Source of the DNA: Nitrospirota bacterium
GTDB lineage: Bacteria; Nitrospirota; UBA9217
Assembly: GCA_035623825.1 (NCBI GenBank)
Contig: DASPSR010000005.1
Coordinates: 18,313 to 82,312, forward strand
Reading direction: 5' to 3'
DNA length: 64,000 nt
Position numbers and translations under genes: made by a program
The notes under the pieces: generated by a model
What the model saw: the letters and a program-made list of their open reading frames with translations, nothing else
What the model was told of the DNA's origin: nothing
Database searches by the model: none
Shown: positions 14,706-36,063 of the stretch, piece after piece
Position numbering within the stretch: position 1 is the first letter of the stretch
Layout: every line of letters begins with the position of its first letter

Positions 14706-15872
14706 CTAATCTGTTGCTAGAAACCCCTGTACCAGTCTTTTGATCTCCAAATGATGCACCGGAATGTTCGGTACGTCCTTGTTCCCGGGAATCGCCAGAA
14801 CATGGATGAACGCTGGACCTTTCCGCGGGCCTCTCATCGCACCCACCAAATCCTTCGCGTCCGCCACTTTATCCGTATTCCTGATCCCGAACCCTTTCGC
14901 CACCTGCTCAAGGTCTACGCAGGACGACGCAAACGTCGGCTGGTTTCCGGTGGAGCCATAGGCGCCGTTATCGATGGCGACGATCGTGAGGTTTTTCGGC
15001 GCAAGAAAGGCGGCCGTTGCCAGCGCACCTGGGTTCATAAGGAGACTTCCGTCTCCGTCAATGACGACCACCTCTTTTTTCGAGTTCTGTGCTATGCCGA
15101 GGCCGATGGGCGTGGCCATGCCCATGCTTCCGAGCATGTAGAAGTTCGAAGGCTGGTGCTTTATGAGGTAAAGCTCCTTGGAGGGCCAGCCGAGATTACT
15201 GACAACGACTTTCTTTTCAAGATATGGCGCGATTAGCTGGAGGATTTCGAACCTTGTACACTGCGCGGTTTGCATTCCTTTTGCCTCCCGCCTTTCAATT
15301 AAGATAGCAGGAGCCTCTTCGTCTTTGACGCCGCAGGTAGCTTGACCTGCCGCTGTCGGGGCACGCGGCGCTTCGCAAGCTGAATCTTCCCACACCGCGG
15401 GACTAAGCAGAAAAGCGTGAATCCTGTTCTTCAGAAAAACCCGGGGCAGTTCCCTGTCAACGACGCTGAAATCGTCTCTTGAGTTTATCTCGGAAAACGT
15501 GATTTCCGCACCGTTCAGGATTCCGGGGAGCCTTTGGCCCATGGGGACCTGGGCCTCGATCTTTTCCTTATAGACGCCCCTCCGGCTCACAAAAAGAGCG
15601 AGGGGAAGCTCATAGAAAGCAGTGAGGGAAAGAAGGGCGTTGATCATGTTCCCGACACCGGAGCTCTGGACGAACACTGCCGGCCGTCTGCCCGAGAGTG
15701 CGGCGCCCGCACAGATCCCGACACCCTCTTCCTCTCTCGTGAGGGGAACATGATGGAAAGACCCAGCCAGCATCTCAAGCATGGTCTTGATCTTCTCGCA
15801 GGGAAGGGAGGCGGTAAAGTCCACCCCATGCGTCTTGAGCATGGCTAGGAGTTCTTCTTCAGGACGTTGCAT
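14706..15872 (-). CDS. comDE: Fused sulfopyruvate decarboxylase ComDE (TPP-dependent)
   Basis: N-half SLPC...LTREEEGVGICAG...QSSGVGNMINAL...RGVYKEKIEAQVPMG (ComD); C-half NFYMLGSMG, IDGDGSLLMN...DNGAYGSTGNQPT TPP motif (ComE); low-complexity linker. Confidence 0.88.
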   Translation of the reverse strand: MQRPEEELLAMLKTHGVDFTASLPCEKIKTMLEMLAGSFHHVPLTREEEGVGICAGAALSGRRPAVFVQSSGVGNMINALLSLTAFYELPLALFVSRRGVYKEKIEAQVPMGQRLPGILNGAEITFSEINSRDDFSVVDRELPRVFLKNRIHAFLLSPAVWEDSACEAPRAPTAAGQATCGVKDEEAPAILIERREAKGMQTAQCTRFEILQLIAPYLEKKVVVSNLGWPSKELYLIKHQPSNFYMLGSMGMATPIGLGIAQNSKKEVVVIDGDGSLLMNPGALATAAFLAPKNLTIVAIDNGAYGSTGNQPTFASSCVDLEQVAKGFGIRNTDKVADAKDLVGAMRGPRKGPAFIHVLAIPGNKDVPNIPVHHLEIKRLVQGFLATD

Positions 15873-17104
15873 AGCAGGTCCTCGATCTCCTTCTCCGTTA
15901 TCTTCTTTGAGATGAACTTGGGAACAACCGTATAGGTCTTTTTCTCCTGCCGCAGTCTTTCTTCACCGCCGCCGGTGATGTTCAGCAATACGGTATCGCT
16001 CTTCCGGATCGCACCAGTTTGCACGGCTTCTGTGAGCACCGCGACAGCCACAGCGGAGGCAGGCACGATGTCGATGCCCTCCGACTCGCGGAAGGTCTCT
16101 ATTGCAGCATACACCGCCTCGTTCCTGACGCCGTACATCGTACCGCCGGTTGCAGTGAGCGCGTCATACACTCCGCCTATTACCGAGTAGGCAGGATATC
16201 GAGTCGAAAGAACCCTGGTCGTGATGTGGGAGATCAGTTCGGGCTTCAGGTCATCGGGAAACAGGGTACGACTGCTCTTGTTCCAGGCGTGGAGCATGGG
16301 CGCAAACGGAAGGTTCTGCCCCAAATGCAGGGTGGTCAGGCGATTGCCAAACCGGCCATCGCGCACGAACCGCTCCGCCATCTCCCAGGCCCCGATGGCC
16401 CCCGTGCCGCTTCCTACGGCCTGAACGTAATGGTCCGGCAGTTTTCCAGTCTTCGAAACCGTCTCAAGCATCACGATGCCAAGGCCGTCGCGTTTGGCAA
16501 TGTTCTTCACGCCCCCCTCAAAGGGAAACCCGAGGGTCAGAGCGATCTTCTTCGCAACATCGATGGCGTCCGCATAGTCACCGTCGCCAACAGCGAGCGT
16601 CGGAATGAGTGATGAACGATTGAGATACCACATCTCCATAAGGCACATCCGGGGCACGACGATGACCACCGGATAGCCTGTCACCGCTGACAAATGCGCA
16701 AAGGCGCGTGCCGTGTTCCCGGCAGAGGCGACAATCAGACCTTCGATGCCGTTCTCCCTGGCGTTCTGGAGCACGACCGCCGCTTCGAACTCCTTGAACG
16801 TGCAAGTCTCAAGGAGCGCCCCTTTCTCAGGCCAGTACCCGCTGAAGGCAATATACAGGTTTTCAAGGCCAAGGCGTTTTGCAAGGCCCTGTGAGCTGTA
16901 TACCAGGGGGCCCGGCTGGGCGATCCGCGGGGCATGAATCGGGAGCCAATTGAACCTCCAGACGCCGTCAGAACCGCGCTCAGTAAAACGAACATCGCTG
17001 TAATCGCTTACGAGAAGCGCATCCTTGCAGTGCTCACAGAAGGCACAGAAGGCGTTCTCAAGAACCTTGCCACAGTTTCTGCATCGAATGGAAAAATGGC
17101 TCAT
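15845..17104 (-). CDS. Cysteate synthase (PLP-dependent, threonine synthase-like)
   Basis: FSGYWPEKGA..TCTFKEFEA (PLP Lys), ASAGNTARAF, GGVKNIAKRDG, QAVGSGTG, QNLPF, LLNITGGG; N-terminal CxxC; adjacent to comDE. Confidence 0.87.
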   Translation of the reverse strand: MSHFSIRCRNCGKVLENAFCAFCEHCKDALLVSDYSDVRFTERGSDGVWRFNWLPIHAPRIAQPGPLVYSSQGLAKRLGLENLYIAFSGYWPEKGALLETCTFKEFEAAVVLQNARENGIEGLIVASAGNTARAFAHLSAVTGYPVVIVVPRMCLMEMWYLNRSSLIPTLAVGDGDYADAIDVAKKIALTLGFPFEGGVKNIAKRDGLGIVMLETVSKTGKLPDHYVQAVGSGTGAIGAWEMAERFVRDGRFGNRLTTLHLGQNLPFAPMLHAWNKSSRTLFPDDLKPELISHITTRVLSTRYPAYSVIGGVYDALTATGGTMYGVRNEAVYAAIETFRESEGIDIVPASAVAVAVLTEAVQTGAIRKSDTVLLNITGGGEERLRQEKKTYTVVPKFISKKITEKEIEDLLCNVLKKNS

Positions 17105-18318
17105 GACTTCTCACCTTCGATCATACTGCCGATCAGTTCCATGATGTCAGTGATCTGTATCCGGTTTTTATGTCCTACCATGGCCTCGTTCACCTTGGCA
17201 TAACAGGCCGGACAGCTCAGGATAAGGCGGTCAGCCTTCTTTGCCACGGCCTCGTCAATGGTCAATCTGCCTATGGCAACGGCGTTTTCGTGATACACTT
17301 TCCTCGCCGCTCCTCCCGCCCCGCAACACCGCGAGTTCAGTCCATTCCGATCAAACTCCAGCAGCGTGAGTCCCGGTATGCTGCGGAGCACCTCCCGCGG
17401 CTCTTCGATCACACCAACTCCACGGGTGAGATAGCAGGGATCGTGATAAATTACCCGTTCATGCAGCTCTTTTCGATACTTCAGCTTGCCTTCTTTTACC
17501 GCCGCTGCAACGAGTTGTGTGATATGACGGATCTTGAACGGGAGGTCGCTGCCATAGAAAACCGGCCAGTCCCTGCTCATGATATTCACGCAACAGGGGC
17601 AGGAGCAGACGAGCGTCTTGACACCCCGTGCCCGGTACCCTTCTACAAGCCGCCTGACCAGGTCCGCGAGCAGGTCGTGCTGACCCGTGATAAAGAGCGG
17701 GAAACCGCAGCAAACCTCTTCCTCGGGAGGGAGCATGGTGAAAGGTTCGCCTATGGCGCCCAGAACCAGTGCGTCGCCCCGCACCATGGGCTGGGCCTCG
17801 TAGGCGCCCGTGCACCCAGCATAATACGCGATTTCCGCCCTCTCGGCAACCTTCACCTGCTCAGGGAACCACGGCTGGTAGCGGTCTGCTGCAGGCTTGT
17901 CGTAGGGATTGCCGCTCCTGCTTACAGCGTTCGGCACGCTGGCCTGTGCGCCGATGGGCCCGAGACCGCGCTTGACCATCTCTTTTCTAAGCGTGGGCCA
18001 GAGACGTTGCGTGAAGATGCCGACGGGGCAGTTCTGTCCGCAGGCGCCGCAGGTGGTGCATTCATAAACCGCCTTCACGAAATCTTCGAGCAGCTTGCGG
18101 TCGACCTTTCCCGGCCCGAAGAACCGCGCCTTAAGACCGTCAGTTGCGCGGATAAACTCGCGGAACATACGGATCTTCTCAGGCGGCGATACCGTGGGGT
18201 TTCCGGTCACATCCTGGATAGGGCAGTGCTTCAGGCACTCTCCGCACTGAGTGCAGGCGTCGATCTCAAGGACCTGTCGGGGAGAGAGTTCTTCCGTGAA
18301 TGATCGTTTATTCTTCAT
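17101..18318 (-). CDS. HdrD-like Fe-S oxidoreductase (2x[4Fe-4S] plus two CCG domains)
   Basis: CTQCGECLKHCP, CTTCGACGQNCP, YYAGC..EVCCG..CPCC, YHDPC..RCCGAGG..CPAC. Confidence 0.88.
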   Translation of the reverse strand: MKNKRSFTEELSPRQVLEIDACTQCGECLKHCPIQDVTGNPTVSPPEKIRMFREFIRATDGLKARFFGPGKVDRKLLEDFVKAVYECTTCGACGQNCPVGIFTQRLWPTLRKEMVKRGLGPIGAQASVPNAVSRSGNPYDKPAADRYQPWFPEQVKVAERAEIAYYAGCTGAYEAQPMVRGDALVLGAIGEPFTMLPPEEEVCCGFPLFITGQHDLLADLVRRLVEGYRARGVKTLVCSCPCCVNIMSRDWPVFYGSDLPFKIRHITQLVAAAVKEGKLKYRKELHERVIYHDPCYLTRGVGVIEEPREVLRSIPGLTLLEFDRNGLNSRCCGAGGAARKVYHENAVAIGRLTIDEAVAKKADRLILSCPACYAKVNEAMVGHKNRIQITDIMELIGSMIEGEKS

Positions 18319-18994
18319 GCATCACCAAACGAAGCGCCTTCTTCCGCTTTCTCGCCTCCATCATCACCAGCGGGGCCGTGAAGATGTGCGTTGGCAGGAA
18401 AGGGATCAGCACCAGAACAAGAATAAAATGAAGTAAGAACAGCAGACTGGCCGGCGCAGCGGCCGGCCTGAGCGTCACAATGCCCCATGCAAACAATTTT
18501 ACGTCCACAAGATCTGGCTTGTACAGAACGTGCATCAGGACGCCCAGAGAGCTGATTACAAGCACCAGGCAGAGAAGGAACATGTTAGCAGGAGAGGCAT
18601 ACTTTTCCCACCTGGTGAACAGCCTTATGACTAGGATGTATACCAAAGCAGGAGGAAGGACGTACCCGGCTATCGTTCCCGGCGTCTGTATGCACCATAC
18701 CCATGCTGGAACAGGGTTCAGAAAATACCGCAAATGCCGAAGGAGAACCAGAAGAAAGCTTGCGTGGAAAGCCCACTCCCCGACCCAAAGAGCGGGATTC
18801 ACCATCAAAAGCCTTGTGAACAGAAAAACATCTGAGACCGTGAGCGCCCATACCTTCGCCGTTGTTGGAGAGGCTGGTTCGGTGGAAAGTCTTTTCATTG
18901 CCTTCCACCATACCAGCCCATGCAGAAGAAACCGCGCCCAGAATACCGAATATGCGCTGTAGGCTGCAACGACCAATATCGTCCCCATAGTCAT
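18308..18994 (-). CDS. DsrM/HmeC/HdrE-like (NarI-family) membrane cytochrome b
   Basis: About five hydrophobic helices; FHASFLLVLLRHLRYF and LHFILV...THIF His pairs; overlaps the hdrD-like start. Confidence 0.78.
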   Translation of the reverse strand: MTMGTILVVAAYSAYSVFWARFLLHGLVWWKAMKRLSTEPASPTTAKVWALTVSDVFLFTRLLMVNPALWVGEWAFHASFLLVLLRHLRYFLNPVPAWVWCIQTPGTIAGYVLPPALVYILVIRLFTRWEKYASPANMFLLCLVLVISSLGVLMHVLYKPDLVDVKLFAWGIVTLRPAAAPASLLFLLHFILVLVLIPFLPTHIFTAPLVMMEARKRKKALRLVMHEE

Positions 18995-19016
18995 CAGTCC
19001 GGCAAGAGCTGTTTAC

Positions 19017-19025: not shown

Positions 19026-19122
19026 CATAAGTCCTTAGGCCCCATTTTCGTCAGCCGACGGCGGATGACAGCGGTATGCAGGACCATTTGGGCCGTGCGG
19101 GTGGTGCGTTGGAGACCACCGG

Positions 19123-19440
19123 TCATTTTTTCACTACGAACGTGATGCTTGCATCCTTGGGGACGTTCAGGCCCGCCTCGGCCTCGATTGCTTTCAGAAT
19201 GCCGGAAGGCACGGGACAGGCCACATGCTTGAGGTGTTTTGATGCTGACCGGTACACGGGATTACTCTGGAAGCCAGTAAGCGCGGCGAACCGGTCTAGG
19301 GTCGCGATGTCTTCCAGCATCTTCTTCACCATGCCGCACTCCGTGTCCAGGGAAATCGCGATTGTTTTGTCTTTCCTGGTTTCTGCTCTAATGGAGACGG
19401 AAAAACCGCATGTTCCTGAGTTGACTATTACCGTTGTCAT
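19123..19440 (-). CDS. Small Cys/His-rich conserved hypothetical protein (DUF6951-like)
   Basis: 105 aa; GTCGF, TECG, HVACPVPSGILKAIEAEAGL. Confidence 0.65.
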   Translation of the reverse strand: MTTVIVNSGTCGFSVSIRAETRKDKTIAISLDTECGMVKKMLEDIATLDRFAALTGFQSNPVYRSASKHLKHVACPVPSGILKAIEAEAGLNVPKDASITFVVKK

Positions 19441-19562: not shown

Positions 19563-21548
19563 CTATGCCTTTATCTCAACGGGGGTGTTCGATTTTTCGA
19601 GCAGCTCCTTCAGATTCGGGAACTTGTCTTTCATGTGCGGGATATGCATTGCTTGCATAAACTCCTTCTCAAAGGCCGGCTCAGTTGCGATTTCGACGAA
19701 CTGCACCCAGCGGGCTCGTTCGTCCGCCTCAGTACGCTTCCTGCGGTTCAGAAGCGCCATCCGTGCACCATCACCCGCAGCGTTTCCTACGACGACGACC
19801 TTCTCGATCGGCACGTCGGGGAACATCCCCAGGGTGAGAGACGCCTCGCGATCGATATGGCTGCCGAAGGCGCCTGCAAGCTCGACGCGGTCGAGCTTGG
19901 TGACGCCCATCTTCTGCATCATGAGCTTTGCACCAGTGTAGAGAGCGCCCTTGGCGAGCTGGAGCGCCCTCACATCACCCTGGGTCACGGTGATGTCCTG
20001 ATTTATCGATGTTTCTTCAGCCCAGGCGAGTACGTATTCGGGCTTCCCGTCGGCATCGCGGCGCACGCGGTTGGTCCCTGTATCCATGATGAACTTGCCG
20101 CTCTTGTCGATGATGCCCGCCGTGAACATCTGAGCTATGACGTCAATAATGCCGGACCCGCAAATGCCCTTGGCGTTGATCTTGCCCTCGATGTGGGTGT
20201 GCCAGTCAGCCTTGCCGATGACCATGTACTGCGGATCTTTCGTTGCGGGATCGATGCGCACCTTCTCGATCGCCCCGGGAGCGGCACGCATCCCGAACTT
20301 GATCTGGGCGCCCTCGAAGGCCGGACCGGTGGCGCAGGAGGTGGAGCAGACCCGGTCCTTGTTGCCCAAGAGCAGCTCGCCGTTCGTTCCGATGTCGATG
20401 ATCAGCACCATCTCGTCCTGATTGTATTGCTCCTGGGCGATCAGCACGCCTACGTTGTCGGCGCCCACGAAGCCGGCCTCGAGAGGCAGAACATGGATAT
20501 AAGAGCCGGGGTTGATGCGGATTCCGAGGTCTCGTGCCTTGATATCGAGAGAGCGCTGAACCGCCGGAATAAAAGGAGAGCGTCCGATGAAGGTCGGGTT
20601 CAGGCCCAAAAAGATATGATGCATGGCAGTATTGAAAACAATGGTGAGGTCATCGATGGTGTGGCCCTGTTGCGGCCCGTCCTTTTGGACTTCGGCAACG
20701 ACCTTCTCGATGATCTCGTTCAAACCGGTGATGATGGAGTCCTGCATGGTCTTGAGGCCGCTTTCGTTCGCCATGGCATACGTGATGCGTGACATCACGT
20801 CTTCTCCGTAGGGTACCTGGGGGTTCATCATCGACTCGGTGTTGATCACCTTGCCCGTTGAGAGGTCGCAAAGGTAGCCCACGCAGGTCGTGGTGCCGAT
20901 ATCAACCGCCAGACCATAGCACACGTCCACGTGGCCAGGCTCGGCCTTGATGATCTCCCTGCCCTGCCACACCGTGAGCGTGATGGTCCATTCTCCCTTT
21001 CGAAGGATGTCCTGCAGGTCCCGCAGGACCTGGTAGTCCATCGTGAGGCCTTTCAGGCCATAGGTCTCTTCGAGGGCGTTGACAATGCGCTCGAAGTCCC
21101 CGGTCGTCATGTCGTGGAGCGTCGGTTTGGTAAGCGACAGGGGGTACTTCTTGACCGCCGGATCGAGAGCGATGGAGAGCTCTTTGGCCGCTTTCCGTAC
21201 CACCTGCTTCCCTGCCCGGGACCGCTCGGGAACAAAGACCTTCAAGTCGCCACGCACCTCGCATTGGCAGGCGAGCCTGATGCCTGGTCCGTCCTCGGGT
21301 TTGATATGCTTTAGCTCGTCCGGAGCCGGGTGATGCGGGAAAATATGCACCATGCCCGACTCGATGTTGTCCTTCTCGAAGTACCCTTCTTCGATCCGGA
21401 CTTTGCACTTGCCACAGACCTTTTTGTTGCCGCAGAGCGCCTCGATGTCGACTCCGAGCGCCTGTGCGGCCTGGAGGACTGTCTTTCCTTCATCAACCTC
21501 GCCGCGGCGGCCCGAGGGCTGGAATATCACTTTGTATTTCTTGGACAT
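19563..21548 (-). CDS. ATP-dependent reductive activator of corrinoid proteins (RACo/RACE, ASKHA family)
   Basis: N-terminal [2Fe-2S] CGNKKVCGKC...RLACQC; DIGTTT, DIGTNGE, ATGPAFEG, GICGSG, AGAFG, GNAAGDGA. Confidence 0.92.
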   Translation of the reverse strand: MSKKYKVIFQPSGRRGEVDEGKTVLQAAQALGVDIEALCGNKKVCGKCKVRIEEGYFEKDNIESGMVHIFPHHPAPDELKHIKPEDGPGIRLACQCEVRGDLKVFVPERSRAGKQVVRKAAKELSIALDPAVKKYPLSLTKPTLHDMTTGDFERIVNALEETYGLKGLTMDYQVLRDLQDILRKGEWTITLTVWQGREIIKAEPGHVDVCYGLAVDIGTTTCVGYLCDLSTGKVINTESMMNPQVPYGEDVMSRITYAMANESGLKTMQDSIITGLNEIIEKVVAEVQKDGPQQGHTIDDLTIVFNTAMHHIFLGLNPTFIGRSPFIPAVQRSLDIKARDLGIRINPGSYIHVLPLEAGFVGADNVGVLIAQEQYNQDEMVLIIDIGTNGELLLGNKDRVCSTSCATGPAFEGAQIKFGMRAAPGAIEKVRIDPATKDPQYMVIGKADWHTHIEGKINAKGICGSGIIDVIAQMFTAGIIDKSGKFIMDTGTNRVRRDADGKPEYVLAWAEETSINQDITVTQGDVRALQLAKGALYTGAKLMMQKMGVTKLDRVELAGAFGSHIDREASLTLGMFPDVPIEKVVVVGNAAGDGARMALLNRRKRTEADERARWVQFVEIATEPAFEKEFMQAMHIPHMKDKFPNLKELLEKSNTPVEIKA

Positions 21549-21656: not shown

Positions 21657-22310
21657 TTATTTCTCATTCGTCCCTCGGACCTTCGCATTGCTTCTCCCGT
21701 AAGGGCAGACATTGATGCAAAAACCGCAATTGGGCTTGCCGACGGTTTTCAATTTGGCCGTCTTGTGGCTCTTACAGACGTCGAGCCTGACTAGTTCCAC
21801 GAAAGGGTCGTGACGGGACCACACGGCCCCCGTTATCGCTTTTGACGGGCAGTGCTCGACGCAGAGCTCGCAATCGCCGCACCTGCTTTGTTCGATCGGC
21901 TCGTCCGCCGCAAGGCGAGCATCGGTCAGAACGGTCGCCAGTGAGAGTCGCGGGCCATGCTTGGGATTGATTAGGAGGCCGTTCTTTCCAACCCAGCCGA
22001 TACCGGCCGATGTAGCCGCCATCTTATGGGTGAACAGAGAATAGAGCTTGGAGATGAAGGACCCATTCGTGCGGTCCGAGTCAGGCGGGATGGCAAGGGT
22101 GCGGTGGCCCCTGGCCTTCAGGAACCTCACAGTCCGCCGCTGAAGCTTGGCCAGCAGGGCGAGGGTGTTCTCGTTCAATTTTCTGTCAACGCCGATCGAA
22201 ACAGCACGGTTCAGATGGCTGATCTCCCCGCTCAGGTATCCGCGCAGATCAGCAACGCCGACCACTGTGGCGCCAAGATCGAACAGCTCCTTGCGGAGCG
22301 AGGTCTTCAT
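21657..22310 (-). CDS. Epoxyqueuosine reductase/reductive dehalogenase-like 4Fe-4S protein
   Basis: HKMAATSAGIGWVGKNGLLINPKHGPRLSLATVLTD, CGDCELCVEHCP, CGFCINVCP. Confidence 0.8.
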   Translation of the reverse strand: MKTSLRKELFDLGATVVGVADLRGYLSGEISHLNRAVSIGVDRKLNENTLALLAKLQRRTVRFLKARGHRTLAIPPDSDRTNGSFISKLYSLFTHKMAATSAGIGWVGKNGLLINPKHGPRLSLATVLTDARLAADEPIEQSRCGDCELCVEHCPSKAITGAVWSRHDPFVELVRLDVCKSHKTAKLKTVGKPNCGFCINVCPYGRSNAKVRGTNEK

Positions 22311-27420: not shown

Positions 27421-27434
27421 GCTAGCAGACATGG

Positions 27435-27773: not shown

Positions 27774-28640
27774 CTACTTTTTCCCGATGGCATGCAGTAT
27801 TTCGCTCACCGAGTCTGATCGATTCATGGTGTAAAAGTGGAAATACTTCACTCCGTTTTTCATCAGGTCCTCACATTGCCGGACCGCGAATTCCACGCCG
27901 CGCTTCCGCATTTCTTCGGGCATGTCCATCACCGGCTCCATCCTTTCGAGGATTTCCCTCGGCACCGTAGCATTGCAGAGACTGGCGAACTCTGCGACTC
28001 TCTTACAGTCTATGATCGGCATGATTCCCGGTAGAACGGGTATCGAGATGCCGAGTTTCTCGGCCCGGTCCATGAAGGCGTAATAGTAGTGGTTGTCGAA
28101 GAACATCTGAGTGATGGCGAAATCCGCACCAGCATCGATTTTTTGCTTCGTAAATTCCATGTCTTTCTCTATGCTTGGCGACTGCCCATGCCCCTCGGGA
28201 TACACTGCCACGGCAATAGAAAAAGAGCCGTATTTCTGGATGAGATCGACGAGGTCTCGTGCGTATTTAAACTCTCCCTGGCCTAGGCTAAAGCATGGTG
28301 CGTTCCTTGGCGGGTCGCCGCGTAGCGCAAGAATGCTGTCGATGCCGGCGGCCTGGTACTTCTCAAGGAGCACAGACAGGGACGCCCTCGTCGCCCCGAC
28401 GCACGTAAGGTGCGACATTACGGTGAGCTCAGTCTCATTTTTTATCTCTGTAAGGGCCTCGAACGTCCTATCCTGAGTGGTGCCGCCTGCCCCGTAAGTA
28501 ACGGAAACGTACAGCGGGTCGAAGACCTTAAGTTCTTGTACGACCTTAATGAACGCGTCTCTTCCCGCATTCGACTTCGGCGGGAAGAATTCGAAGGATA
28601 TCCCTTCCTTCCGCTCTTTCAGTTTTTCTATGAGTTTCAT
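27774..28640 (-). CDS. metF: 5,10-methylenetetrahydrofolate reductase
   Basis: SFEFFPPK, SVTYGAGG, HLTC, LALRGDPP, ITQMFFD, HFYTMNR. Confidence 0.95.
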   Translation of the reverse strand: MKLIEKLKERKEGISFEFFPPKSNAGRDAFIKVVQELKVFDPLYVSVTYGAGGTTQDRTFEALTEIKNETELTVMSHLTCVGATRASLSVLLEKYQAAGIDSILALRGDPPRNAPCFSLGQGEFKYARDLVDLIQKYGSFSIAVAVYPEGHGQSPSIEKDMEFTKQKIDAGADFAITQMFFDNHYYYAFMDRAEKLGISIPVLPGIMPIIDCKRVAEFASLCNATVPREILERMEPVMDMPEEMRKRGVEFAVRQCEDLMKNGVKYFHFYTMNRSDSVSEILHAIGKK

Positions 28641-28805: not shown

Positions 28806-29681
28806 ATGAAAACGACAATTGTCTGCGGTTTGCTGGGTTCGGGAAAGACAACGTTTATCAGGAACTTCGTGAAGGGCCTGGCGGGGAAAGCCGTTGTTCT
28901 GGTGAACGATTTCGGCGCCGCAGGAATCGACGGAGAGATATTCTCCACGGACGGAATCGAATCTGTCGAGCTGCCGAGCGGGTGCGTGTGTTGCACCCTT
29001 AAGTTCGACCTGATCACCACGATCCAGAGAATCGCCAAGACGTTCGCTCCAAAGCACCTCCTGATCGAACCGAGCGGTGTTGCATCTCCTTCCGGCGTGC
29101 TTGAGGCACTCGAAGGTGCTGGAATCGGGACGGCGAACGTGGTCGGTATCGTAGATGCCGTGGAGTTTGCCGAACTCTACGAATCGGGCAGGTACGGAAG
29201 CTTCTTCGAGGATCAGATAGCCAACTCCGACGTTATCCTCGTGAACAAGACTGACCTCGCCGGAGAGGCCGCCATCGCTGCTGCGGAACGGTTGATCGCA
29301 TCCATCAATCCCCATGCCGTACTTCTCCGTACGGTGAACGCCGATATTGATATTCCCCTTCCCCGGTCGCCCCAACACCGCAGAATTCGTTCAGGCGATT
29401 GTCATTTCAATTTTGAGACGGTGTCGTTAAGGATCATCAGTAAGCCTGCTTTCTCCGTAATAAAAGACTTTTTTGATGAACTAGCGAAAGGACGGTTCGG
29501 GTCAGTGGCGCGGGCAAAGGCGCTGGTGAACACGCAGGAGGGACCGTACCGGTTCGACACCGCCTACGGCAAGATTAACGCGGTCCGCTTTGAAAAGGAC
29601 ATCGAGAACAGCAGGCTTGTCGTCATCGGAGAAGCGCTGGACAGGCAGGGCATGGAGCGTGCTCTCTTCGCGGGCATATAA
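28806..29681 (+). CDS. CobW/COG0523 G3E GTPase metallochaperone
   Basis: GLLGSGKTT, LVNDFG, GCVCC, IEPSG, NKTD, C-terminal SRLVVIG. Confidence 0.9.
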   Translation: MKTTIVCGLLGSGKTTFIRNFVKGLAGKAVVLVNDFGAAGIDGEIFSTDGIESVELPSGCVCCTLKFDLITTIQRIAKTFAPKHLLIEPSGVASPSGVLEALEGAGIGTANVVGIVDAVEFAELYESGRYGSFFEDQIANSDVILVNKTDLAGEAAIAAAERLIASINPHAVLLRTVNADIDIPLPRSPQHRRIRSGDCHFNFETVSLRIISKPAFSVIKDFFDELAKGRFGSVARAKALVNTQEGPYRFDTAYGKINAVRFEKDIENSRLVVIGEALDRQGMERALFAGI

Positions 29682-29845: not shown

Positions 29846-31180
29846 CTAGGGATTGATCCCGTACTTTTTGAGTTTAAGGTAAAGGGTTTTCCGGTCTATC
29901 CCCAAGAGTTGGCTTGCTTTGGACTGGTTGTTGTTCGCTTCCTTCAGGACCTGCAGGATGTATTTCTTCTCCATCTCTTCGAGGGAAGGGTTGGTCCCGA
30001 GTTGCGCGACGACAGAAGGGGATGGTATCGAGAGGTCTTCGGCCCCAAGAGTGTCCGATTCGCACAGTATCACTGCCCGTTCGATAACATTCTCGAGTTC
30101 CCGCACGTTGCCTGGCCAGTGGTATGCCGCAAGCATTTCCAGGGCATCGGGCGTGAGGCCAGTGATGTGCTTGGCGAGCTTTTTCGCATACTTCTCGAGA
30201 AAATGGCGGGCAAGCTCCGGGATGTCCTCTTTCCGCTCCCGGAGGTGTGGAATGGCAATGTTGATTACGTTCAATCGGTAAAAGAGGTCTTCCCTGAACT
30301 TTCCGGCCTTGATCAGCTGAGGAATGTCCTTGTTCGTCGCGGCGATTACCCGCACGTCAACAGAGAGGGTCTTGTTCCCGCCCACCCGCCGGAACTCGCC
30401 GGAATCGAGGAACCGAAGGAGTTTTGCCTGGAGCGCGATAGGCATCTCTCCGATCTCATCGAGGAAGAGAGTCCCCTTATCCGCCACTTCAACGAGTCCG
30501 TGCTTCATCTGGTATGCGCTGGTAAAGGCTCCTTTCTCGTGGCCGAAGAGCTCTGACTCGATGAGGTTCTCTGACAGGGAGGCGCAATTTAGGGCGATGA
30601 ACGGAGCCTCCTTGCGCGTGCTGTAGTGCCAGACGGTGTTCGCGACAAGCTCCTTGCCCGTGCCGCTCTCGCCCTGGATGAACACAGGCGAGTCCGTGGG
30701 AGCCACCTTCTGGATGAGCGCGAGGATGTCCTTGAGCTGTTTGCTTTTACCGACGAACTCCAAGGGAGATTCGATTCTGACCAGCTCCTGCTCCAGAAGC
30801 TTGCTCTTGACTGAGAGCCTGCCGTACTCGTAGGCCCGCTCGATGACGATCACCAGCTCATCGAGTTTGTAGGGCTTGGTGAGGTAGTCATAGGCGCCGT
30901 TCTTCATGGCCTCCACCGCGGTCTCCACCGTTGCCTTGCCGGTCAGTACGATGATAGTTGGCGCTTCCGAGTCCTCCTTTAGCTTCTTCATGAGCGATAT
31001 TCCGTCCACGCCGGGCATGACGATGTCGAGGAGGATCACATCGAACGAGCGATTGCGCAGGAGCCGCAGGGCCTCGCTTCCGTCTGCGGTTGCCTCCACG
31101 GAATAGCCTTTACGGGTAAGCTCTTTTTTCAGGAGCCTTCTGAATGGCTCTTCATCATCCACGACGAGAATGTTGATCAT
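29846..31180 (-). CDS. sigma54-dependent NtrC-family response regulator
   Basis: Receiver (VVDDE, LLDIVMP), GESGTGKE, GAFTSA, LFLDEIGE, WPGNVRELEN, Fis HTH; ATG 31180. Confidence 0.95.
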   Translation of the reverse strand: MINILVVDDEEPFRRLLKKELTRKGYSVEATADGSEALRLLRNRSFDVILLDIVMPGVDGISLMKKLKEDSEAPTIIVLTGKATVETAVEAMKNGAYDYLTKPYKLDELVIVIERAYEYGRLSVKSKLLEQELVRIESPLEFVGKSKQLKDILALIQKVAPTDSPVFIQGESGTGKELVANTVWHYSTRKEAPFIALNCASLSENLIESELFGHEKGAFTSAYQMKHGLVEVADKGTLFLDEIGEMPIALQAKLLRFLDSGEFRRVGGNKTLSVDVRVIAATNKDIPQLIKAGKFREDLFYRLNVINIAIPHLRERKEDIPELARHFLEKYAKKLAKHITGLTPDALEMLAAYHWPGNVRELENVIERAVILCESDTLGAEDLSIPSPSVVAQLGTNPSLEEMEKKYILQVLKEANNNQSKASQLLGIDRKTLYLKLKKYGINP

Positions 31181-31287
31181 AATAGGAAACTCAACGGCGA
31201 AGGTGTGAAAAACACGCAGATTTTTCGTAACTGCAAGACTTAAAGATTTCCTCTGCGCTTTTCGCAGTGAAATGCGCCTTTGATTTC

Positions 31288-33318
31288 TTACTCCTTGCAC
31301 ATGATCGACGGAAGCGTAATGATGAATGTGGCGCCCTTGCCGGGTTCGCTGTCCACATCGATAGCGCCGCCGTGCTCTTCCACAATTTTATGACAGATGG
31401 TAAGGCCGAGCCCGGTCCCTTCACCAACAGGCTTGGTGGTGAAGAAGGGATCGAAGATCTTGTCCAAAAGATCGGGTGGGATCCCCGCGCCTGTGTCAGA
31501 AACTGACAGGCGGATCCGGCTCGGGCAGGCAATGCGTCCGTCTTCCCGCATCAGGTCATCCTCGGCTGTCCGGATGGCGATGCTGCCGCCCTCGGGAGTG
31601 AAGTAGATGGCGTTTAATAATAGGTTCATCAACAGCTGACGCAGGCTGCCGGCGTCTGCGTAGATTTTCGGAATATCCCGGTTCAGGTTGAGTTCGAGGG
31701 TGTGCTTCAGCCGCGCGGTACGGTGCTTGAGCAGGAGAAGGACTTCCTTGATGAGCTCGTTAATGTCGATTTCGCGGAAGGTGCCTCCGGACGGACGGGC
31801 GAACTCGAGCAGGCTTCTGAGGATCGTTTTGCACCGAAAGATTTCATTGTGGATTGTCCTGAGATACTCGGGAAAGTCCTCGAACTCCCGGATTCCGGCA
31901 AGCGACTGGTCGTGGGCCCGGTCGAGGAGCGCCTCCGAGTAGCCCGCAATGATCCCCAGAGGGTTGTTGATCTCGTGAGCGATGCCCGCGACAAGTGTAC
32001 CCAGGGAGGCGAGCTTGTCCGACCGGATGAGCTGCTGTTCGAGCCTCCTCTGGGCTGTCACGTCCTTAAGGTAGTGGACGATTGCGTAGAGCCTGCCCTC
32101 CTCGTCGACGAGCGGGTATGCCCAGAAATGGAATATGCCACCGCTAACGCTCTTCATCTCCTGGAACGACGGCCTCTTGCATGAGAGCGTTTCGGAGCAG
32201 AGACAGCCGTCGGTCAGCAGGATGCCGATATTTTCCATGATCTCTGCGCACAGCTTGCCGGTGATCTCTGTTTTGGAATAACCTGTCCTAGCCAACAGGG
32301 TATGATTCGCGCGGATCACCCGTTGTCTGCCGTCCTCGATCCAGACCATGTCGGTGATGGCGTCGAATGTGCGCTCCCACTCCTTCTTTTCTTTTGAGAT
32401 CTCCTCGAACAGGAGCGCGTTCTCGAGAGCGACAGCGATATGCTTGGCGACGGGGAGAAGGATCTCGTAGTCTTTCTCCGAATATTGCGATGGCCTGGTG
32501 CTGTCAAAATTGAATACGCCGAGCATGCGGTCATGAAACAAAGGGATGCTGATCGTCGACCGGATGCCTTCGTGCAGAAGCTTTCTGTCGAGCGGGAACG
32601 CAGTTTCGTTCAAATCGTAGCTGATCCAGGGCTGGTTGTTCCTCACGACCCAGCCGGCGCTGGTTCTCTCGATCGGGGCCTTCACCCCCTTTTTCATCGC
32701 GGTCTTCATCTCCGTGTCCAGAGCGAAGATCAAGAGGTTGTCGTCCTTTTCATTGTACAGCAGCAGGCTTGCCCTGCTGTAGTTGATGATTTTCCGAAGC
32801 TCGGAGACAACCATCCGGAAAATCGTCCCGATGCTCAGGCTGGAATTGATGATACTGCTCAGCTCGTTGATCAGTTCGCCTTGCGTTGCCCTGTCCCGGT
32901 GCGCTCTCGAACCAGGTTCTGAAGGAGCGGCCTTTTGTCCGGCCGCATCACGGACCACGATGATCATTGTGTCCGGCCGATGGTTTCTGACCGGGATAAC
33001 GGCGATCCTGGAAGCCAGGGGGCTGCCGTTCTTTCGAAAACAGAAGGATCGCAGAGCCGAGGAGGATTCTCCCCCGGTAGGCACATTTGTGGAGGGAGAG
33101 CGGCCGGCGGATCCGTGCTCGCTGAGAATATTGTCGAGCGATATGAACTTTTCGAGATTCCTGCCGATAACTTCACTGCGCTCATATTCGAAGAACAGAA
33201 GCACATTGTCATTGCAAGAAAGGACCGTCCATTCTTTGTCGACAATGAAGGCAGGCAATCTGAGAACATCGAGCGTTCTTAATAACGCCGAACTGTCCCT
33301 GTCGATCATGATTTTCAT
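31288..33318 (-). CDS. Cytoplasmic PAS-GAF-PAS sensor histidine kinase
   Basis: No TM helices; AHEINNPL H-box, NLLLNA, DTGAG, FFTTK, GTGLGL; Cys-rich second PAS (LC...GCLC...SC). Confidence 0.92.
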
Positions 33319-33451: not shown

Positions 33452-34405
33452 ATGAAGATCAGGATTGGACATCTCTCGACCTTCTATCACACGTCGATCC
33501 TCTTAATGGCAACGAGCGACACCGATTCGCGATTCGGCGCTGAGATAGAATGGAGGCTGATGGGTACGGGGCCGGCGATCATGAAGGCCTTTGGCAGGGG
33601 CGAGCTTGATATGGCATACATCGGACTGCCGCCTGCTATCATCGGCATAGACCAAGGGATCAAGGTCATCTGTGTGGCAGGCGGCCATGTTGAAGGAACG
33701 GTCATTGCGGGGAAATCGCAGTGGACCGGGTTTCATGAGTCCGACGACCTCGGAATGATCCTGAGTCAGTTCCGTGGAAGGAAGATCGGAGTACCTGGAA
33801 GGGGTTCCATCCACGACGTTATCTTATACGACTGCATTGAGCGGTTGGGTTTTGCTCGTGATATCGAGATCGTCAATTATCCGTGGGCGGATCTTGTGAC
33901 CGAGGCGGTGGTCAGGGATGAGGTATCTGCTGCCGTGGGTACACCCGCCCTTGCCGTCGCGATCAAACGATTTGCTGCTGGTAAAGTGCTCTATCCGCCT
34001 TCAAGTCTCTGGCCCAATAACCCGAGCTACGGAATTGTTGTGGACACCGGCTATTTATCAAGGGAAACGACGATGGTTGAGAAGTTTCTCAGACTCCATG
34101 AAGAAGCAACCGAATTCATCAGAAAACGGCCGGCTGAAGCGGCTCGGATGATTGCGGATTACATCGGTATCGTTGATGAGCGCTTCGTACTTGACACGAT
34201 CATGCTTTCCCCCAAATACTGTGCCCAGCTCACCGATGGCTATGTATCAGCGACCATGAAGTTTGTGACGGTTTTAAAGAAGCTGGGGTATATAGGATCA
34301 GACGTTGAACGGGAAAGAATATTTCATCACGATCTGATCGCCCGAATCCACCCAGAGAGGGAGCACTACAGCGATGGGATTGATTCCTTACGTACGACTC
34401 CGTAG
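33452..34405 (+). CDS. SsuA/TauA/NrtA-like substrate-binding protein lacking a signal peptide
   Basis: KIRIGHLS, GPAIMKAF..GELDMAYIGLPP, GRKIGVPGRGSIHD; starts directly at the first beta strand; no permease or ATPase adjacent. Confidence 0.78.
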   Translation: MKIRIGHLSTFYHTSILLMATSDTDSRFGAEIEWRLMGTGPAIMKAFGRGELDMAYIGLPPAIIGIDQGIKVICVAGGHVEGTVIAGKSQWTGFHESDDLGMILSQFRGRKIGVPGRGSIHDVILYDCIERLGFARDIEIVNYPWADLVTEAVVRDEVSAAVGTPALAVAIKRFAAGKVLYPPSSLWPNNPSYGIVVDTGYLSRETTMVEKFLRLHEEATEFIRKRPAEAARMIADYIGIVDERFVLDTIMLSPKYCAQLTDGYVSATMKFVTVLKKLGYIGSDVERERIFHHDLIARIHPEREHYSDGIDSLRTTP

Positions 34406-34419
34406 GGTGAAAATCCCGG

Positions 34420-36063
34420 TTACTTCTCTTTCAGTGCTGCAGCCGGATAGTAATCACCATGGCCCGGGAATATGTACGCTTGCCCGCCATGGACCCTCAA
34501 TGTTTCGTCCAGAGAGAGAATCATTTCCTTCAACGAGGCAGCCTCTTCTTTATAGACCCTGGAATCGCTGTTTGGGCTCGTGAGTAGATACCGATAGATG
34601 CCGAGGTATTCTTTTTCTTCGGATGACAGGCTCCGCATGTTCAGGAGAAAGTCCGAGGTGAAGAGCAGCCCGAATTCCCGGTTTAGGAAAAAGACCAGTC
34701 CAGGAGTGTGGCCGCCATGGCTTTCGAGAACTTCGAACCGGAGCGGGCCGACCGTAAAGGTGTCGATGGTCCAGAATGAGCCTGTCTCTTCTCGTTCTCT
34801 TGTAGAGAAGTGGTGCGGTTGGGACGGAAAGAGGCACTCCGTGAACCGGCTCGAAAGCCGCGTGTAGTATTTGTTCAGGTTCAGGAGGCTTCCCGAAATC
34901 CCGTGCGCCCGGTTCATATGAGTGATGACATCGGCGCTGCCTGGGTGCATGAAGACCGCCGTCCCGAACTCCTGTTCGAAGTATCCGGACGCTCCGGCGT
35001 GGTCCGTGTCGGGATGGGTGACGTAGATCCGTCTCACCCATGCCGGGTCCATCCCCTGATTCCTGATGAGGCGCTTGATGTCTTCATAGTATATACCGTG
35101 GCCGGCGTCGATCATGGTCAGGTCGTCGCCATCGCGCAGCAAGTAGAAGTTCTCACTCGAAGGCAGACGGAACCCGAGGAGCGTTACCCAGTTGTGGAAG
35201 CGCAGCGGCCTCATCGGTGTCGCTGAGAAATTTTCGCCGATCCGGCTCCTCGATCGCGATGCAAACGAAAGCACCGTCTCGAACACGTCGCCTGCCTCGA
35301 GGTTATTACCGGCTTCCGTAGCAAAGTGCACCAGGTCCTGGTGCAGCTCCCGGGATGAGTCCACGAGGGATTTGATCTCCGCCACATCGCTCGATGGGAG
35401 GAGCTGCTTGAGACGGAGGAAAAATTTTTCGACCATCTTCAGGCCGATGATTCGCGATGCCTCCTCTTTGTTGCTGCCGCGGTACACGACACGGTAGTGG
35501 TATCCTTTTTCGTTTATTGCCTGCAGGAGCGTGTTGATCTCCTGCGGGTTCGCGGCGGCCATGGCGATATCTGCGGACTCTGCGTCGATGTCCTCATCAT
35601 AAAGCATATAGATCACATTTGCATCGTGTTCGGCGAGAAGCCTGGCAAAGGACGCGAGGGAGCCGGGCTTGTTGACCAGACGGACCTTCACCTCGAGAAT
35701 GCTTTCTACGGTCGTGACCAGCACCTCGTCCGGCGCGCAGCGCACGCTCTTGAAGCCGTACTCTTTCTCTTGCAGGGATTGCAGGAGTGCGTTCAGGCTG
35801 TCTTCCCCTCCGAGATGCACTGCAACGGCAACGCGGCTACTGTCCGTTGATCGATCGTAGTGGAAGAAGGAGATGTTCCCGCCGGTATGAGCAATGGCAG
35901 TGGCGAAGGCGGCGAGGGATCCGGGACGATCGGGTAGATAGACGCGGAATTTGACGAGAAGTTCTCCCGACGTCAGGGCGTCAGTTCCGGCAGAGAGGCG
36001 GACCTGACGATACACCTTGAGAGGCGCTCGATCGCCAAAATCACTTTTCATGGAGATTTCCAT
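34420..36063 (-). CDS. Tandem ACT domain plus metallo-beta-lactamase-fold hydrolase
   Basis: LPDRPGSLA and LVNKPGSLA ACT starts; MIDAG, THPDTDHAG, GGHTPG, FTSD, PGHG. Confidence 0.82.
   Translation of the reverse strand: MEISMKSDFGDRAPLKVYRQVRLSAGTDALTSGELLVKFRVYLPDRPGSLAAFATAIAHTGGNISFFHYDRSTDSSRVAVAVHLGGEDSLNALLQSLQEKEYGFKSVRCAPDEVLVTTVESILEVKVRLVNKPGSLASFARLLAEHDANVIYMLYDEDIDAESADIAMAAANPQEINTLLQAINEKGYHYRVVYRGSNKEEASRIIGLKMVEKFFLRLKQLLPSSDVAEIKSLVDSSRELHQDLVHFATEAGNNLEAGDVFETVLSFASRSRSRIGENFSATPMRPLRFHNWVTLLGFRLPSSENFYLLRDGDDLTMIDAGHGIYYEDIKRLIRNQGMDPAWVRRIYVTHPDTDHAGASGYFEQEFGTAVFMHPGSADVITHMNRAHGISGSLLNLNKYYTRLSSRFTECLFPSQPHHFSTREREETGSFWTIDTFTVGPLRFEVLESHGGHTPGLVFFLNREFGLLFTSDFLLNMRSLSSEEKEYLGIYRYLLTSPNSDSRVYKEEAASLKEMILSLDETLRVHGGQAYIFPGHGDYYPAAALKEK

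Follow-up and report, generated by a model that had tools for sequence, protein, structure and literature searches.

A stretch of 64,000 nucleotides from the chromosome of a Nitrospirota bacterium (assembly GCA_035623825.1, contig DASPSR010000005.1, positions 18,313 to 82,312; here called the window and numbered from its first letter) carries a gene cluster in which enzymes for the synthesis of a precursor of coenzyme M (CoM) are encoded beside a redox pair of the HdrDE type and a corrinoid-dependent set of methyltransferases. A preliminary description of this DNA, drawn from the letters alone, had proposed a bacterial CoM-dependent methyl-transfer system built from methanogen-type parts and without methyl-CoM reductase (Mcr). 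All of the genes that it named, from cysteate synthase to a protein resembling SsuA and TauA, were recovered by searches with family profiles, and the cluster that contains them spans positions 14011-34405. Its core is a block on the minus strand (14706-27432) of twelve genes, not counting a receiver-like open reading frame (ORF) at its head, which are separated by short gaps or overlap one another. In the direction of transcription, the block reads receiver-like ORF, MtaA2, a CMD/AhpD-like protein, MtrH, MtaA1, a corrinoid protein, an iron-sulfur protein resembling QueG and reductive dehalogenases (RDH), the activase RACo, DUF6951, an HdrE-like and an HdrD-like protein, cysteate synthase and ComDE. 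The flanks are occupied by MetF, CobW, an NtrC-type activator, a PAS-GAF histidine kinase, the SsuA/TauA-like protein and a conserved ORF of 215 amino acids (aa; Table 1). DUF6951, the CMD/AhpD-like protein, the receiver-like ORF and the 215-aa ORF are additions to the earlier list. The range originally given, 14706-36063, does hold cluster genes, but it also takes in a gene at 34420-36063 (minus strand) for a 547-aa protein in which two ACT domains are fused to a metallo-beta-lactamase domain, and which was found in none of 80 related loci.

Table 1. Features of the cluster in window coordinates, with profile scores in bits (against the curated cut-off where one is given) and presence among related loci whose flank was long enough for the gene to be judged.
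Feature	Position	Strand	Profile evidence	Present/informative loci
Conserved 215-aa ORF	14011..14658	+	no Pfam or NCBIfam match	
Fused ComDE, sulfopyruvate decarboxylase, thiamine pyrophosphate enzyme (sulfopyruvate to sulfoacetaldehyde)	14706..15872	-	TIGR03845 / TIGR03846	71/71
Cysteate synthase, pyridoxal phosphate enzyme (phosphoserine + sulfite to cysteate)	15845..17104	-	TIGR03844 467.6 > 324.9 (equivalog)	
HdrD-like iron-sulfur protein, putative thiol/disulfide oxidoreductase	17101..18318	-	dicluster ferredoxin + 2 CCG domains	64/70
HdrE/DsrM/NarI-like membrane protein, putative b-type cytochrome linking HdrD to the quinone pool	18308..18994	-	DsrM 67.8 < 300	60/67
DUF6951 small protein (start at residue 23 of the ORF)	19123..19440	-	PF22263 105.6	62/64
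RACo-type ATP-dependent reductive activase of corrinoid proteins, N-terminal 2Fe-2S	19563..21548	-	RACo_C_ter 323, Raco_middle 178, RACo_linker 86, Fer2 39	58/61
Small QueG/reductive-dehalogenase-like dicluster Fe-S protein	21657..22310	-	QueG 65, RDH 58.8, both under cut-off	53/58
Corrinoid (B12-binding) methyl-carrier protein	22307..23002	-	B12-binding 99.6, B12-binding_2 80.2; pyl_corrinoid 200.6 vs 215.3	52/57 (74-94% identity)
MtaA-type Zn methyltransferase 1 (MtaA1), candidate methylcobamide:thiol (CoM) methyltransferase	23007..24026	-	NF004889 266.4 > 244; TIGR01463 246.6 > 235.4	52/57
MtrH-family methylcorrinoid:pterin (tetrahydrofolate) methyltransferase	24164..25111	-	NF002142 339.6 > 287; MtgA 163.7 < 550	50/53
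CMD/AhpD-like protein, C-x3-C-x2-H motif, possible thiol-disulfide protein	25311..25838	-	PF02627 25.3 > 23	40/50
MtaA/CmuA-family Zn methyltransferase 2 (MtaA2), divergent, candidate substrate:corrinoid methyltransferase (MT1)	26028..27056	-	TIGR01463 187.9 < 235.4	
Receiver-like ORF with sigma-54-type -24/-12 motif, proposed operon start	27091..27432; motif 27436-27450	-	Response_reg 25.9 < 30.2	
MetF, methylenetetrahydrofolate reductase	27774..28640	-	TIGR00676 337.2 > 293.7	
CobW/ZigA-type metallochaperone GTPase, candidate for Zn or Co delivery	28806..29681	+	cobW 128.6; CobW 105.8 < 332	
NtrC-family sigma-54 activator	29846..31300	-	profile match	
Cytoplasmic PAS-GAF-PAS histidine kinase	31288..33318	-	profile match	
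TauA/SsuA-like solute-binding-fold protein, candidate C2-sulfonate sensor or binder	33452..34405	+	SsuA_fam 76.9 < 163.5, full length	

The predicted route to sulfoacetaldehyde, the last known precursor of CoM, is well supported by the scores of cysteate synthase and ComDE. The former exceeds its equivalog cut-off by a wide margin, and in the latter the alpha part reaches 177.2 bits on TIGR03845 (cut-off 147.95) while the beta part, at 219.7 bits on TIGR03846 (cut-off 221.5), stops 1.8 bits short. The com genes of the preliminary description thus hold, with cysteate synthase and ComD over curated cut-offs and ComE within 2 bits of its own. Two other identities were tried and rejected, namely ComDE as a phosphonopyruvate decarboxylase, a model on which it scores 210.9 against a cut-off of 312.5, and the cysteate synthase gene as the housekeeping threonine synthase, for it attains only 30.6 bits on the ThrC model and a separate ThrC is encoded on contig C18 (215.7 > 167.1). 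Searching representative sequence clusters with the cysteate synthase returned 199 clusters at E <= 1e-30, in which one at 60% identity is followed by the next at 47-48%. The transamination of cysteate to sulfopyruvate that joins the two enzymes is carried out by a general aminotransferase in the established pathway (PMC9457059).

Overlaps of 4-28 nucleotides (nt) run through the genes for HdrE, HdrD, cysteate synthase and ComDE, with cysteate synthase overlapping HdrD by 4 nt and ComDE by 28 nt. The HdrD-like protein has the architecture of HdrD, with two [4Fe-4S] motifs (Fer4_8, 48.5 bits) and CCG domains in two stretches (79.8 bits); its best curated match is TfrB, of the CoM/CoB thiol:fumarate reductase (183.4 < 385), and DsrK is matched at 87.4 bits. 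About five hydrophobic segments are present in the HdrE-like protein, whose counterpart in the related locus L050 matches Nitrate_red_gam. Both are distinct from their paralogues in the same genome, as judged by tblastn: the other HdrD-like locus, on contig C67, is 24% identical, and the DsrM-like paralogue on contig C38 is 31% identical to the HdrE-like protein. HdrDE reduces the heterodisulfide CoM-S-S-CoB, and DsrMK the trisulfide of DsrC. The translational coupling of the pair to cysteate synthase and ComDE fits a recycling of CoM disulfide with quinol; more speculatively, the pair might itself provide the reductive step of thiol formation. Upstream of it lies the gene for DUF6951, in which C11, C35, H72 and C75 are invariant across 25 orthologues. 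The ten best Foldseek matches to its predicted structure (pLDDT 89.3) are all SufE, IscU or CsdE proteins, at E values of 0.06-0.4, and by VIA its likeness to IscU has a Z of 6.0, tied with lipoate-ligase and molybdo-flavoprotein domains and below the caution line of Z 8; a weakly IscU/SufE-like fold is therefore taken as a lead only. Only DUF6951 clusters, from Nitrospirota and Chloroflexota, were returned by the ESM Atlas. The gene overlaps that of RACo in several relatives and occurs also in a genus without com genes.

In the methyl-transfer half, the URO-D fold (PF01208) is matched by the two MtaA-family enzymes at 237.4 and 205.2 bits. MtaA1 lies over the cut-off of NF004889, the methylcobalamin:CoM methyltransferase subfamily, and an alignment of it with Methanosarcina mazei MtaA (4ay7; E 1.5e-47) matches up the HICG and PGC motifs. 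The same motifs align in MtaA2 (E 1.1e-25 to 4ay7), which bears in addition a weak likeness to the chloromethane methyltransferase CdmB (9rui, E 1.2e-4), and whose orthologues are 54-90% identical where the flank of a locus reaches them. The H-x-C...C motifs reported in the preliminary description are hence intact in both enzymes, and H238, C240 and C316, which we take to be the zinc ligands, are invariant in all five MtaA-like genes of the host genome. The MtrH-family protein is the sole tblastn match to the window query in that genome, and of the Mtr membrane complex (MtrA-H) the cluster contains this family alone. RACo scores 483.5 on the AcsV model (cut-off 800), and the CMD/AhpD-like protein is highly conserved, at 69-94% identity in relatives. 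MetF, which had been counted as part of the cluster, is present over its cut-off and as the single copy found in the host genome with the window query, but it adjoins the cluster only in the window and in L093, and is absent from that position in L032, L034, L091, L092 and L094; a terminator-like hairpin (27718-27704) lies 3' of it, between MetF and the operon start. A CobW gene 70-71% identical to that of the window adjoins the cluster in L032, L034 and L092, and the MtaA1 paralogue on contig C9, described below, likewise has a CobW-like gene at its side.

The arrangement recurs widely. A search of a species-level genome collection with cysteate synthase gave 88 relatives, of which 80 were kept as loci. 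All are bacterial, with identities of 58-83%; 77 are labelled as Nitrospirota of the Thermodesulfovibrionia kind and the others as Thermoleophilia, Rokubacteria and 'Betaproteobacteria', and the sample labels of the metagenome-assembled genomes (MAGs) name peat, groundwater, wetland and subsurface. The order MtaA2, CMD/AhpD-like, MtrH, MtaA1, corrinoid protein, Fe-S protein, RACo, DUF6951, HdrE, HdrD, cysteate synthase, ComDE holds in most of the 80 loci, which come from three phyla. The com/Hdr and methyltransferase halves are contiguous in most of them, so that the lack of synteny named beforehand as a ground for refutation is clearly not observed. The counts in Table 1 were made with flanks of 10 kb; MtaA2 lies at the edge of these and could be judged in one locus only. 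The Thermoleophilia locus (L083) has the block in the same order but lacks the small Fe-S gene; the SsuA-like gene and the 215-aa ORF are there too. Recurrence in relatives puts the arrangement far outside what chance would produce; the relatives are not independent of one another, and counts are accordingly given without statistics. A survey of 301 Nitrospirota genomes, sampled evenly across the phylum, detected cysteate synthase in 58, MtrH in 61 and the two together in 56. The two genomes with cysteate synthase and without MtrH are 65% and 68% complete.

A sigma-54 motif (TGGCAT-N5-TTGC, with one mismatch) stands directly before the receiver-like ORF. In four of five relatives with upstream sequence, the motif is found 22-30 nt upstream of the same ORF; in seven loci where no receiver-like ORF was detected and MtaA2 alone served as the anchor, the 400 nt upstream of MtaA2 did not contain it. 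Orthologues of the kinase and the NtrC-type activator follow the SsuA-like gene in L009 (kinase only), L010, L023 and L026, and both precede the receiver-like ORF in L091 and L094. ComDE is directly followed in L010 by the SsuA-like gene, the 215-aa ORF, the kinase and the activator. Their position next to the cluster in relatives shows that the regulators and the binding protein are part of the system, even if the window has them elsewhere, and the difference in position suggests a local rearrangement near the cluster. The 215-aa ORF has a low-complexity middle and a C-terminal stretch that appears ribbon-helix-helix-like by eye only. Of the 52 loci whose flank extends for 4.5 kb or more, 32 have it downstream of ComDE, and in relatives it forms an operon with the TauA/SsuA-like gene that converges on ComDE. 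No riboswitch was found at E <= 0.1 between 12000 and 37500.

The predicted structure of the TauA/SsuA-like protein (pLDDT 87.2) resembles those of sulfonate binders, with Foldseek TM scores of 0.74-0.78 at E 4e-18 to 1e-15, and TauA (taurine) and SsuA (alkanesulfonate) binders make up seven of the eight best matches. The window protein and 10 of 12 orthologues begin at M-x-x-R-(I/V)-G-H-L-S-T-F-Y-H-T, which forms the first beta strand, the other two having a longer called N-terminus. No signal peptide is present on the window protein or these 10 of 12 orthologues, which argues for a cytoplasmic location, and no genes for an ABC permease or ATPase stand beside it in the window. It is thus a candidate cytoplasmic protein of the sulfonate-binder kind, most simply a sensor. 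The gene is next to cysteate synthase and ComDE also where the locus is minimal, as in L071 and L082. In L050 (641-7105), from a peat MAG of the Thermodesulfovibrionales, a complete transporter (an SsuA-like gene, an ABC permease and an ABC ATPase) and a methyl-accepting chemotaxis protein are inserted between DUF6951 and the NarI-like/HdrD-like pair that precedes cysteate synthase, and L044 and L087 resemble this transporter arrangement by tblastn. Together, the TauA/SsuA-like binder and the SsuABC-type transporter within the cluster tie a C2-type sulfonate to both of its halves. A resolvase and a pirin follow in L050, and the cluster has evidently been open to insertions and rearrangements.

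The host, a sulfate- or sulfite-reducing Nitrospirota of the Thermodesulfovibrionia from a peat habitat, is represented by a genome of 67 contigs that is 89.65% complete, and DNA nearly identical to the window was found in several peat metagenomes. DsrA is present in this genome, and is matched in all eight other cluster-bearing genomes examined, from three phyla, in six of them over the cut-off. Because all examined hosts of the cluster carry Dsr, they would make their own sulfite and sulfide. AcsB, sought as a sign of the Wood-Ljungdahl pathway, was also found, together with a CooS-like gene. Nothing scored over the cut-off for Xsc, for which a check had likewise been advised. The statement that the system is without Mcr is borne out in all six genomes searched for mcrA, namely the host and five further cluster-bearing genomes, in none of which was it found.

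A second corrinoid cluster occupies approximately 10.1-25.9 kb of contig C9 (1166-16957 of L089). It comprises, in this order, a PAS histidine kinase, a LuxR-type regulator, an MtaA1 paralogue, a CobW-like GTPase, a 140-aa ORF, a CbbQ/NorQ AAA ATPase, a 901-aa VWA protein and a metal-binding protein of the DUF2284 family, after which come a third URO-D enzyme, again divergent, the corrinoid protein (56% identity), RACo (55%) and CobT. Its MtaA1 paralogue is 52% identical to that of the window and likewise passes the NF004889 cut-off (254 > 244). No MtrH or other pterin methyltransferase was found in this cluster, and a corrinoid set with URO-D enzymes and without a pterin methyltransferase points to a thiol as methyl acceptor in the host genome.

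The gene content taken together suggests, at a little short of an even chance, an inducible, sigma-54-controlled system that makes CoM or a closely similar sulfonate thiol and keeps it reduced by means of an HdrDE-like, quinol-linked enzyme, while a corrinoid protein with a link to tetrahydrofolate (THF) serves to add methyl groups to it or remove them. Cysteate synthase, fused ComDE and a general aminotransferase would convert phosphoserine and sulfite to sulfoacetaldehyde. We infer that this is then converted to CoM with the cell's own sulfide, either by a novel enzyme or, as in Methanosarcina at high sulfide, without ComF. The HdrD-like protein and its HdrE/DsrM-like membrane partner would connect the thiol/disulfide couple of the cofactor with the quinone pool, while the corrinoid protein, RACo, the two MtaA-family enzymes and the MtrH-family enzyme would carry methyl groups between a substrate, the thiol cofactor (as methyl-CoM) and THF. 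Within this set, MtaA1 is the candidate methylcobamide:CoM methyltransferase and MtaA2 the candidate enzyme on the substrate side; the substrate might be a methoxylated aromatic compound, a methyl sulfide or a methyl halide. Control would be exerted on the sigma-54 promoter by the cytoplasmic TauA/SsuA-like protein, the small putative regulator and the histidine kinase with its NtrC partner. The transfer of a methyl group from a methyl-pterin to CoM is exergonic by ~30 kJ/mol, as known from the Mtr reaction, and that from a thioether to a pterin is strongly uphill. Since transfer from methyl-CoM to THF would run against this gradient and depend on a strong pull, the favoured direction is from the substrate or methyl-THF to the thiol, and the flow from CoM to THF put forward in the preliminary description is the less likely one. 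The MtrH-like protein would form the link between corrinoid and THF; its relatives MtgA and MtoA link corrinoid proteins with their respective pterins (PMC8630106). That thiolation without ComF is possible is indicated by Methanosarcina acetivorans lacking MMP16, which needs no added CoM at high sulfide, and for which an uncatalysed or promiscuous reaction is discussed in that study (PMC11844431).

A narrower form of this proposal, in which Nitrospirota sulfate reducers, and some Thermoleophilia by transfer, possess genuine ComF-independent CoM and an Mcr-free 'half' of methylotrophic methanogenesis with an HdrDE-cycled disulfide, is possible but doubtful. The thiol would in that case be formed from Dsr-derived sulfide by a new enzyme, perhaps the HdrDE-like pair. 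A soluble corrinoid system would exchange methyl groups among methylated substrates, methyl-CoM and methyl-THF; CoM would thereby acquire a third biological role, and these bacteria would constitute a reservoir of genes thought typical of methanogens.

Several observations weigh against a CoM-dependent methyl-transfer system. ComF (MMP16, TIGR03287) is matched in the host genome only through ferredoxin motifs, at no more than 31.4 bits against a cut-off of 363.95, and COG1900 (PF01837) was found in none of six cluster-bearing genomes (the host and five more, of which two are titled chromosomes); the genomes searched for these two offer no known enzyme that could form the thiol. The earlier claim that the bacterium makes CoM or a similar compound consequently stands for the genes up to sulfoacetaldehyde and falters thereafter, and since ComF was sought and not found, the cluster does not, strictly speaking, represent the archaeal CoM pathway. 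The weakest point is the fate of methyl-CoM, for which no consumer was identified, neither mcrA nor nitrogenase-like genes having been found. A nitrogenase-like methylthio-alkane reductase was considered for this role and rejected, as PF00148 was not found in the host genome. At the level of individual proteins, MtaA1 lies under the equivalog cut-offs for MtaA (254.6 < 400) and MtbA (183.8 < 600), MtaA2 is under the family cut-offs of both TIGR01463 and NF004889 (171.8 < 244), and the HdrD and HdrE matches are below every curated cut-off. Five of the 61 genomes with MtrH lack cysteate synthase, and all five lack ComD and ComA as well (ComA was searched for in these five and not in the host genome); in two of them the cluster is cut by a contig end. 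In genus g39 (three genomes) the methyltransferase half stops at DUF6951 and gives way to unrelated radical-SAM genes, L071 (Rokubacteria) and L082 hold only the SsuA-like gene, cysteate synthase and ComDE with no methyltransferase genes nearby, and HdrDE is not present at L032 and L034. The two halves can therefore exist as separate modules, yet in this lineage they nearly always come joined. The sigma-54 motif occurs three times in the window, which is not above the 3.88 expected by chance, so that the argument from it rests on position and recurrence. A peat RNA library (one run) contained 5% of the sampled words, and its contigs covered 9 of 30 bins; no meaning attaches to the uncovered parts. 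Three pieces over parts of HdrD, HdrE and the 215-aa ORF were identical or one letter off, including an identical contig at 14289-14441 in the 215-aa ORF and one with a single difference at 17933-18252 in HdrD; as these are contigs of one run in which DNA may be included, and from which transcripts cannot be demonstrated, the indication of expression in peat is weak.

The strongest rival, though rather unlikely in our estimate, sees in the methyltransferase half a demethylase of the Mto, Odm or Cdm kind, with three components and no need of CoM, and takes the com and Hdr genes for a separate module, for a sulfonate or a low-molecular-weight thiol, merely co-located and co-regulated with it. 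One or both URO-D enzymes would move a methyl group from a methoxy-aromatic, a methyl halide or a similar compound to the corrinoid protein, the MtrH-like protein would pass it to THF, and RACo would repair the carrier. The part list equals that of MtoB1/B2, MtoC, MtoA and MtoD, including the N-terminal 2Fe-2S domain of the activase, and Mto works without CoM, its MtrH-like group occurring in organisms that neither make nor use the cofactor (PMC8630106). The divergence of MtaA2 and its weak likeness to CdmB, and the presence of AcsB and MetF to process methyl-THF, would also suit a demethylase, as would the separate occurrence of the two halves in genus g39 on one side and in L071 and L082 on the other. 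The source habitat is peat, and peat is rich in methoxylated aromatics. Mere co-location is, however, hard to reconcile with halves that adjoin on a single strand in 50-52 of 53-57 informative loci, that occur together in 56 of the 63 genomes having either, and that have moved jointly into a Thermoleophilia genome. MtaA1 passes the cut-off of the CoM methyltransferase subfamily, the C9 cluster dispenses with any pterin methyltransferase, and the SsuABC-type transporter of some loci sits directly after DUF6951.

Two further explanations concern the sulfonate alone. Sulfoacetaldehyde might serve some other product, such as taurine, isethionate, sulfoacetate or a new sulfonate, which the TauA/SsuA-like protein would sense while the HdrDE-like pair and the methyltransferases acted on other substrates. 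Bacterial cysteate synthases for sulfonolipid synthesis are known, the closest structures to the binder include the taurine binder TauA, and both the finding of ComF/COG1900 in none of the six genomes and the minimal modules of L071 and L082, which have neither Hdr nor methyltransferase genes, are in keeping with such a product. Yet the conserved block contains no sulfoacetaldehyde aminotransferase, reductase or dehydrogenase, a pair of thiol/disulfide type is translationally coupled to cysteate synthase and ComDE, and the conserved neighbours are zinc enzymes of the thiol-methylating kind, which renders this explanation improbable. A place for the com genes in sulfonate catabolism, leading from cysteate or sulfolactate through sulfopyruvate and sulfoacetaldehyde to sulfite for respiration, would suit hosts that respire sulfite (DsrA) and that carry sulfonate-type transporters in some loci, and ComDE is catabolic in Roseovarius and some sulfolactate degraders. 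It is nonetheless very improbable, because the cysteate synthase is of the biosynthetic, phosphate-eliminating kind over its equivalog cut-off and no Xsc was found over the cut-off; nor does the block contain a desulfonating enzyme, although the glycyl-radical isethionate lyase was not searched for.

A thiol-based methyl-transfer system in this bacterium would find its nearest working model in the soluble CmtA/MtsF of Methanosarcina acting with MtsA/MtsB. As in CmtA/MtsF, MtsA-MtsB, MtpCA and MtaA of that genus, a zinc enzyme of the URO-D fold is here combined with a corrinoid carrier, for a predicted methyl transfer to or from a thiol, and CmtA links methyl-tetrahydrosarcinapterin to CoM in the cytoplasm (PMC7374477). 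The Nitrospirota system differs in that the pterin half-reaction would fall to a separate MtrH-family protein with THF as the carrier, that the proteins are unfused and that no methyl-CoM reductase follows. The phosphoserine pathway of CoM synthesis in M. acetivorans (MA3297 cs, MA3298 comDE, MA3299 MMP16/ComF) shares the reaction order and likewise has cysteate synthase and fused ComDE adjacent (PMC11844431, PMC4045070). Here, in contrast, MMP16/COG1900 was found in none of six genomes, the host is a bacterium without mcrA, and cysteate synthase and ComDE share one operon with the HdrDE-like and methyltransferase genes. MtoABCD of Methermicoccus shengliensis and Archaeoglobus fulgidus, together with bacterial O-demethylases, offer the same set of two MtaA/CmuA-related enzymes, a corrinoid protein, an MtrH-like protein and RACo with a 2Fe-2S domain (PMC8630106). 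They differ in operating without CoM and without com or Hdr neighbours, whereas MtaA1 here falls within TIGR01463 by score. In HdrDE of Methanosarcina and DsrMK of sulfate reducers, as here, a cytoplasmic subunit that has two ferredoxin clusters and two CCG domains is paired with a membrane subunit, which in the window is a putative b-type cytochrome; unlike in HdrDE, the electron carrier would probably be menaquinone rather than methanophenazine. The Xcb genes of Xanthobacter and relatives are the bacterial precedent for CoM genes that are located and induced with a CoM-using pathway (PMC9457059). The Xcb enzymes themselves are unrelated, proceeding from phosphoenolpyruvate by way of ComA-type and aspartase/fumarase-type proteins, and in those aerobic hosts CoM is a nucleophile for epoxides and not a methyl carrier.

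All of the parts are thus of known kinds, and the novelty suggested lies in their combination: archaeal-type genes for a CoM precursor, an HdrDE-type pair, MtaA and MtrH enzymes and sigma-54 control, without Mcr and ComF. No description of such a cluster was found in literature searches, the coverage of which is incomplete (most subscription journals and supplements lie outside it), and in the Lake Towuti papers CoM is mentioned only in the names of Mcr or marker genes. CoM is known from two settings, namely the methane and alkane metabolism of archaea and the oxidation of alkenes and epoxides in a few aerobic bacteria, which make it by an unrelated route. Were the proposed system confirmed, CoM would gain a new setting in widespread anaerobic, sulfur-cycling Nitrospirota. 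The finding would point to a missing CoM synthase, and to the routing of methyl groups from methoxy, methyl-sulfur and methyl-halide compounds into sulfate-reducing food webs. Additionally, mtaA, mtrH, hdrD and comDE in metagenomes could no longer be read by annotation pipelines and surveys as signs of methanogens, and the exchange of parts of the methylotrophic methanogenesis toolkit between Bacteria and Archaea would become directly testable.

Some further features of the relatives and of the host genome were noted. Directly after the SsuA-like gene, cysteate synthase and ComDE in the Rokubacteria MAG (L071, 3133-4218 and 11154-11954) stands a gene for a ThiF/MoeB-family E1-like enzyme (273.9 bits), which could be a lead to the sulfur-insertion step, and a small protein resembling sulfite reductase (NIR_SIR and ferredoxin domains) is encoded 4 kb upstream of this minimal module. 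Cluster genes that are near-identical (80-88%) to those of the Nitrospirota occur in a 'Betaproteobacteria' MAG (L014) and a 'Candidatus Sulfotelmatobacter' MAG (P0020); these copies are more likely mis-binned Nitrospirota contigs than products of transfer, and the taxon labels of MAGs such as L014 need care. Split or stop-interrupted genes were seen for HdrD in L044, for ComDE in L087, and for cysteate synthase and MtrH in G214, G217 and G247, and may stem from frameshifts or assembly errors, or from a cluster that is decaying in some lineages. In the host genome, the first 8.8 kb of contig C10 (L090) encode a CooS/prismane-family protein (447.6 bits), an Fe-S protein related to the QueG-like gene and fused to SCP2, an MtaA2 paralogue (53%), a 590-aa ORF without a family and a fragment resembling LarC, of nickel insertion; this nickel- and CO-dehydrogenase-like neighbourhood for a zinc methyltransferase is unexplained. 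Finally, the preliminary description had placed the cluster on a bacterial replicon, and GyrB, DnaN, DnaA, ParB, ParA, MnmG and MnmE are all encoded in the window, which is the origin region of a bacterial chromosome. The genes gyrB, dnaN and dnaA lie at 339-5494, and parB, parA, mnmG and mnmE at 41991-49001, about 37 kb away, with the cluster in between; the G+C content is lower (45%) at 4-8 kb, just past dnaA.

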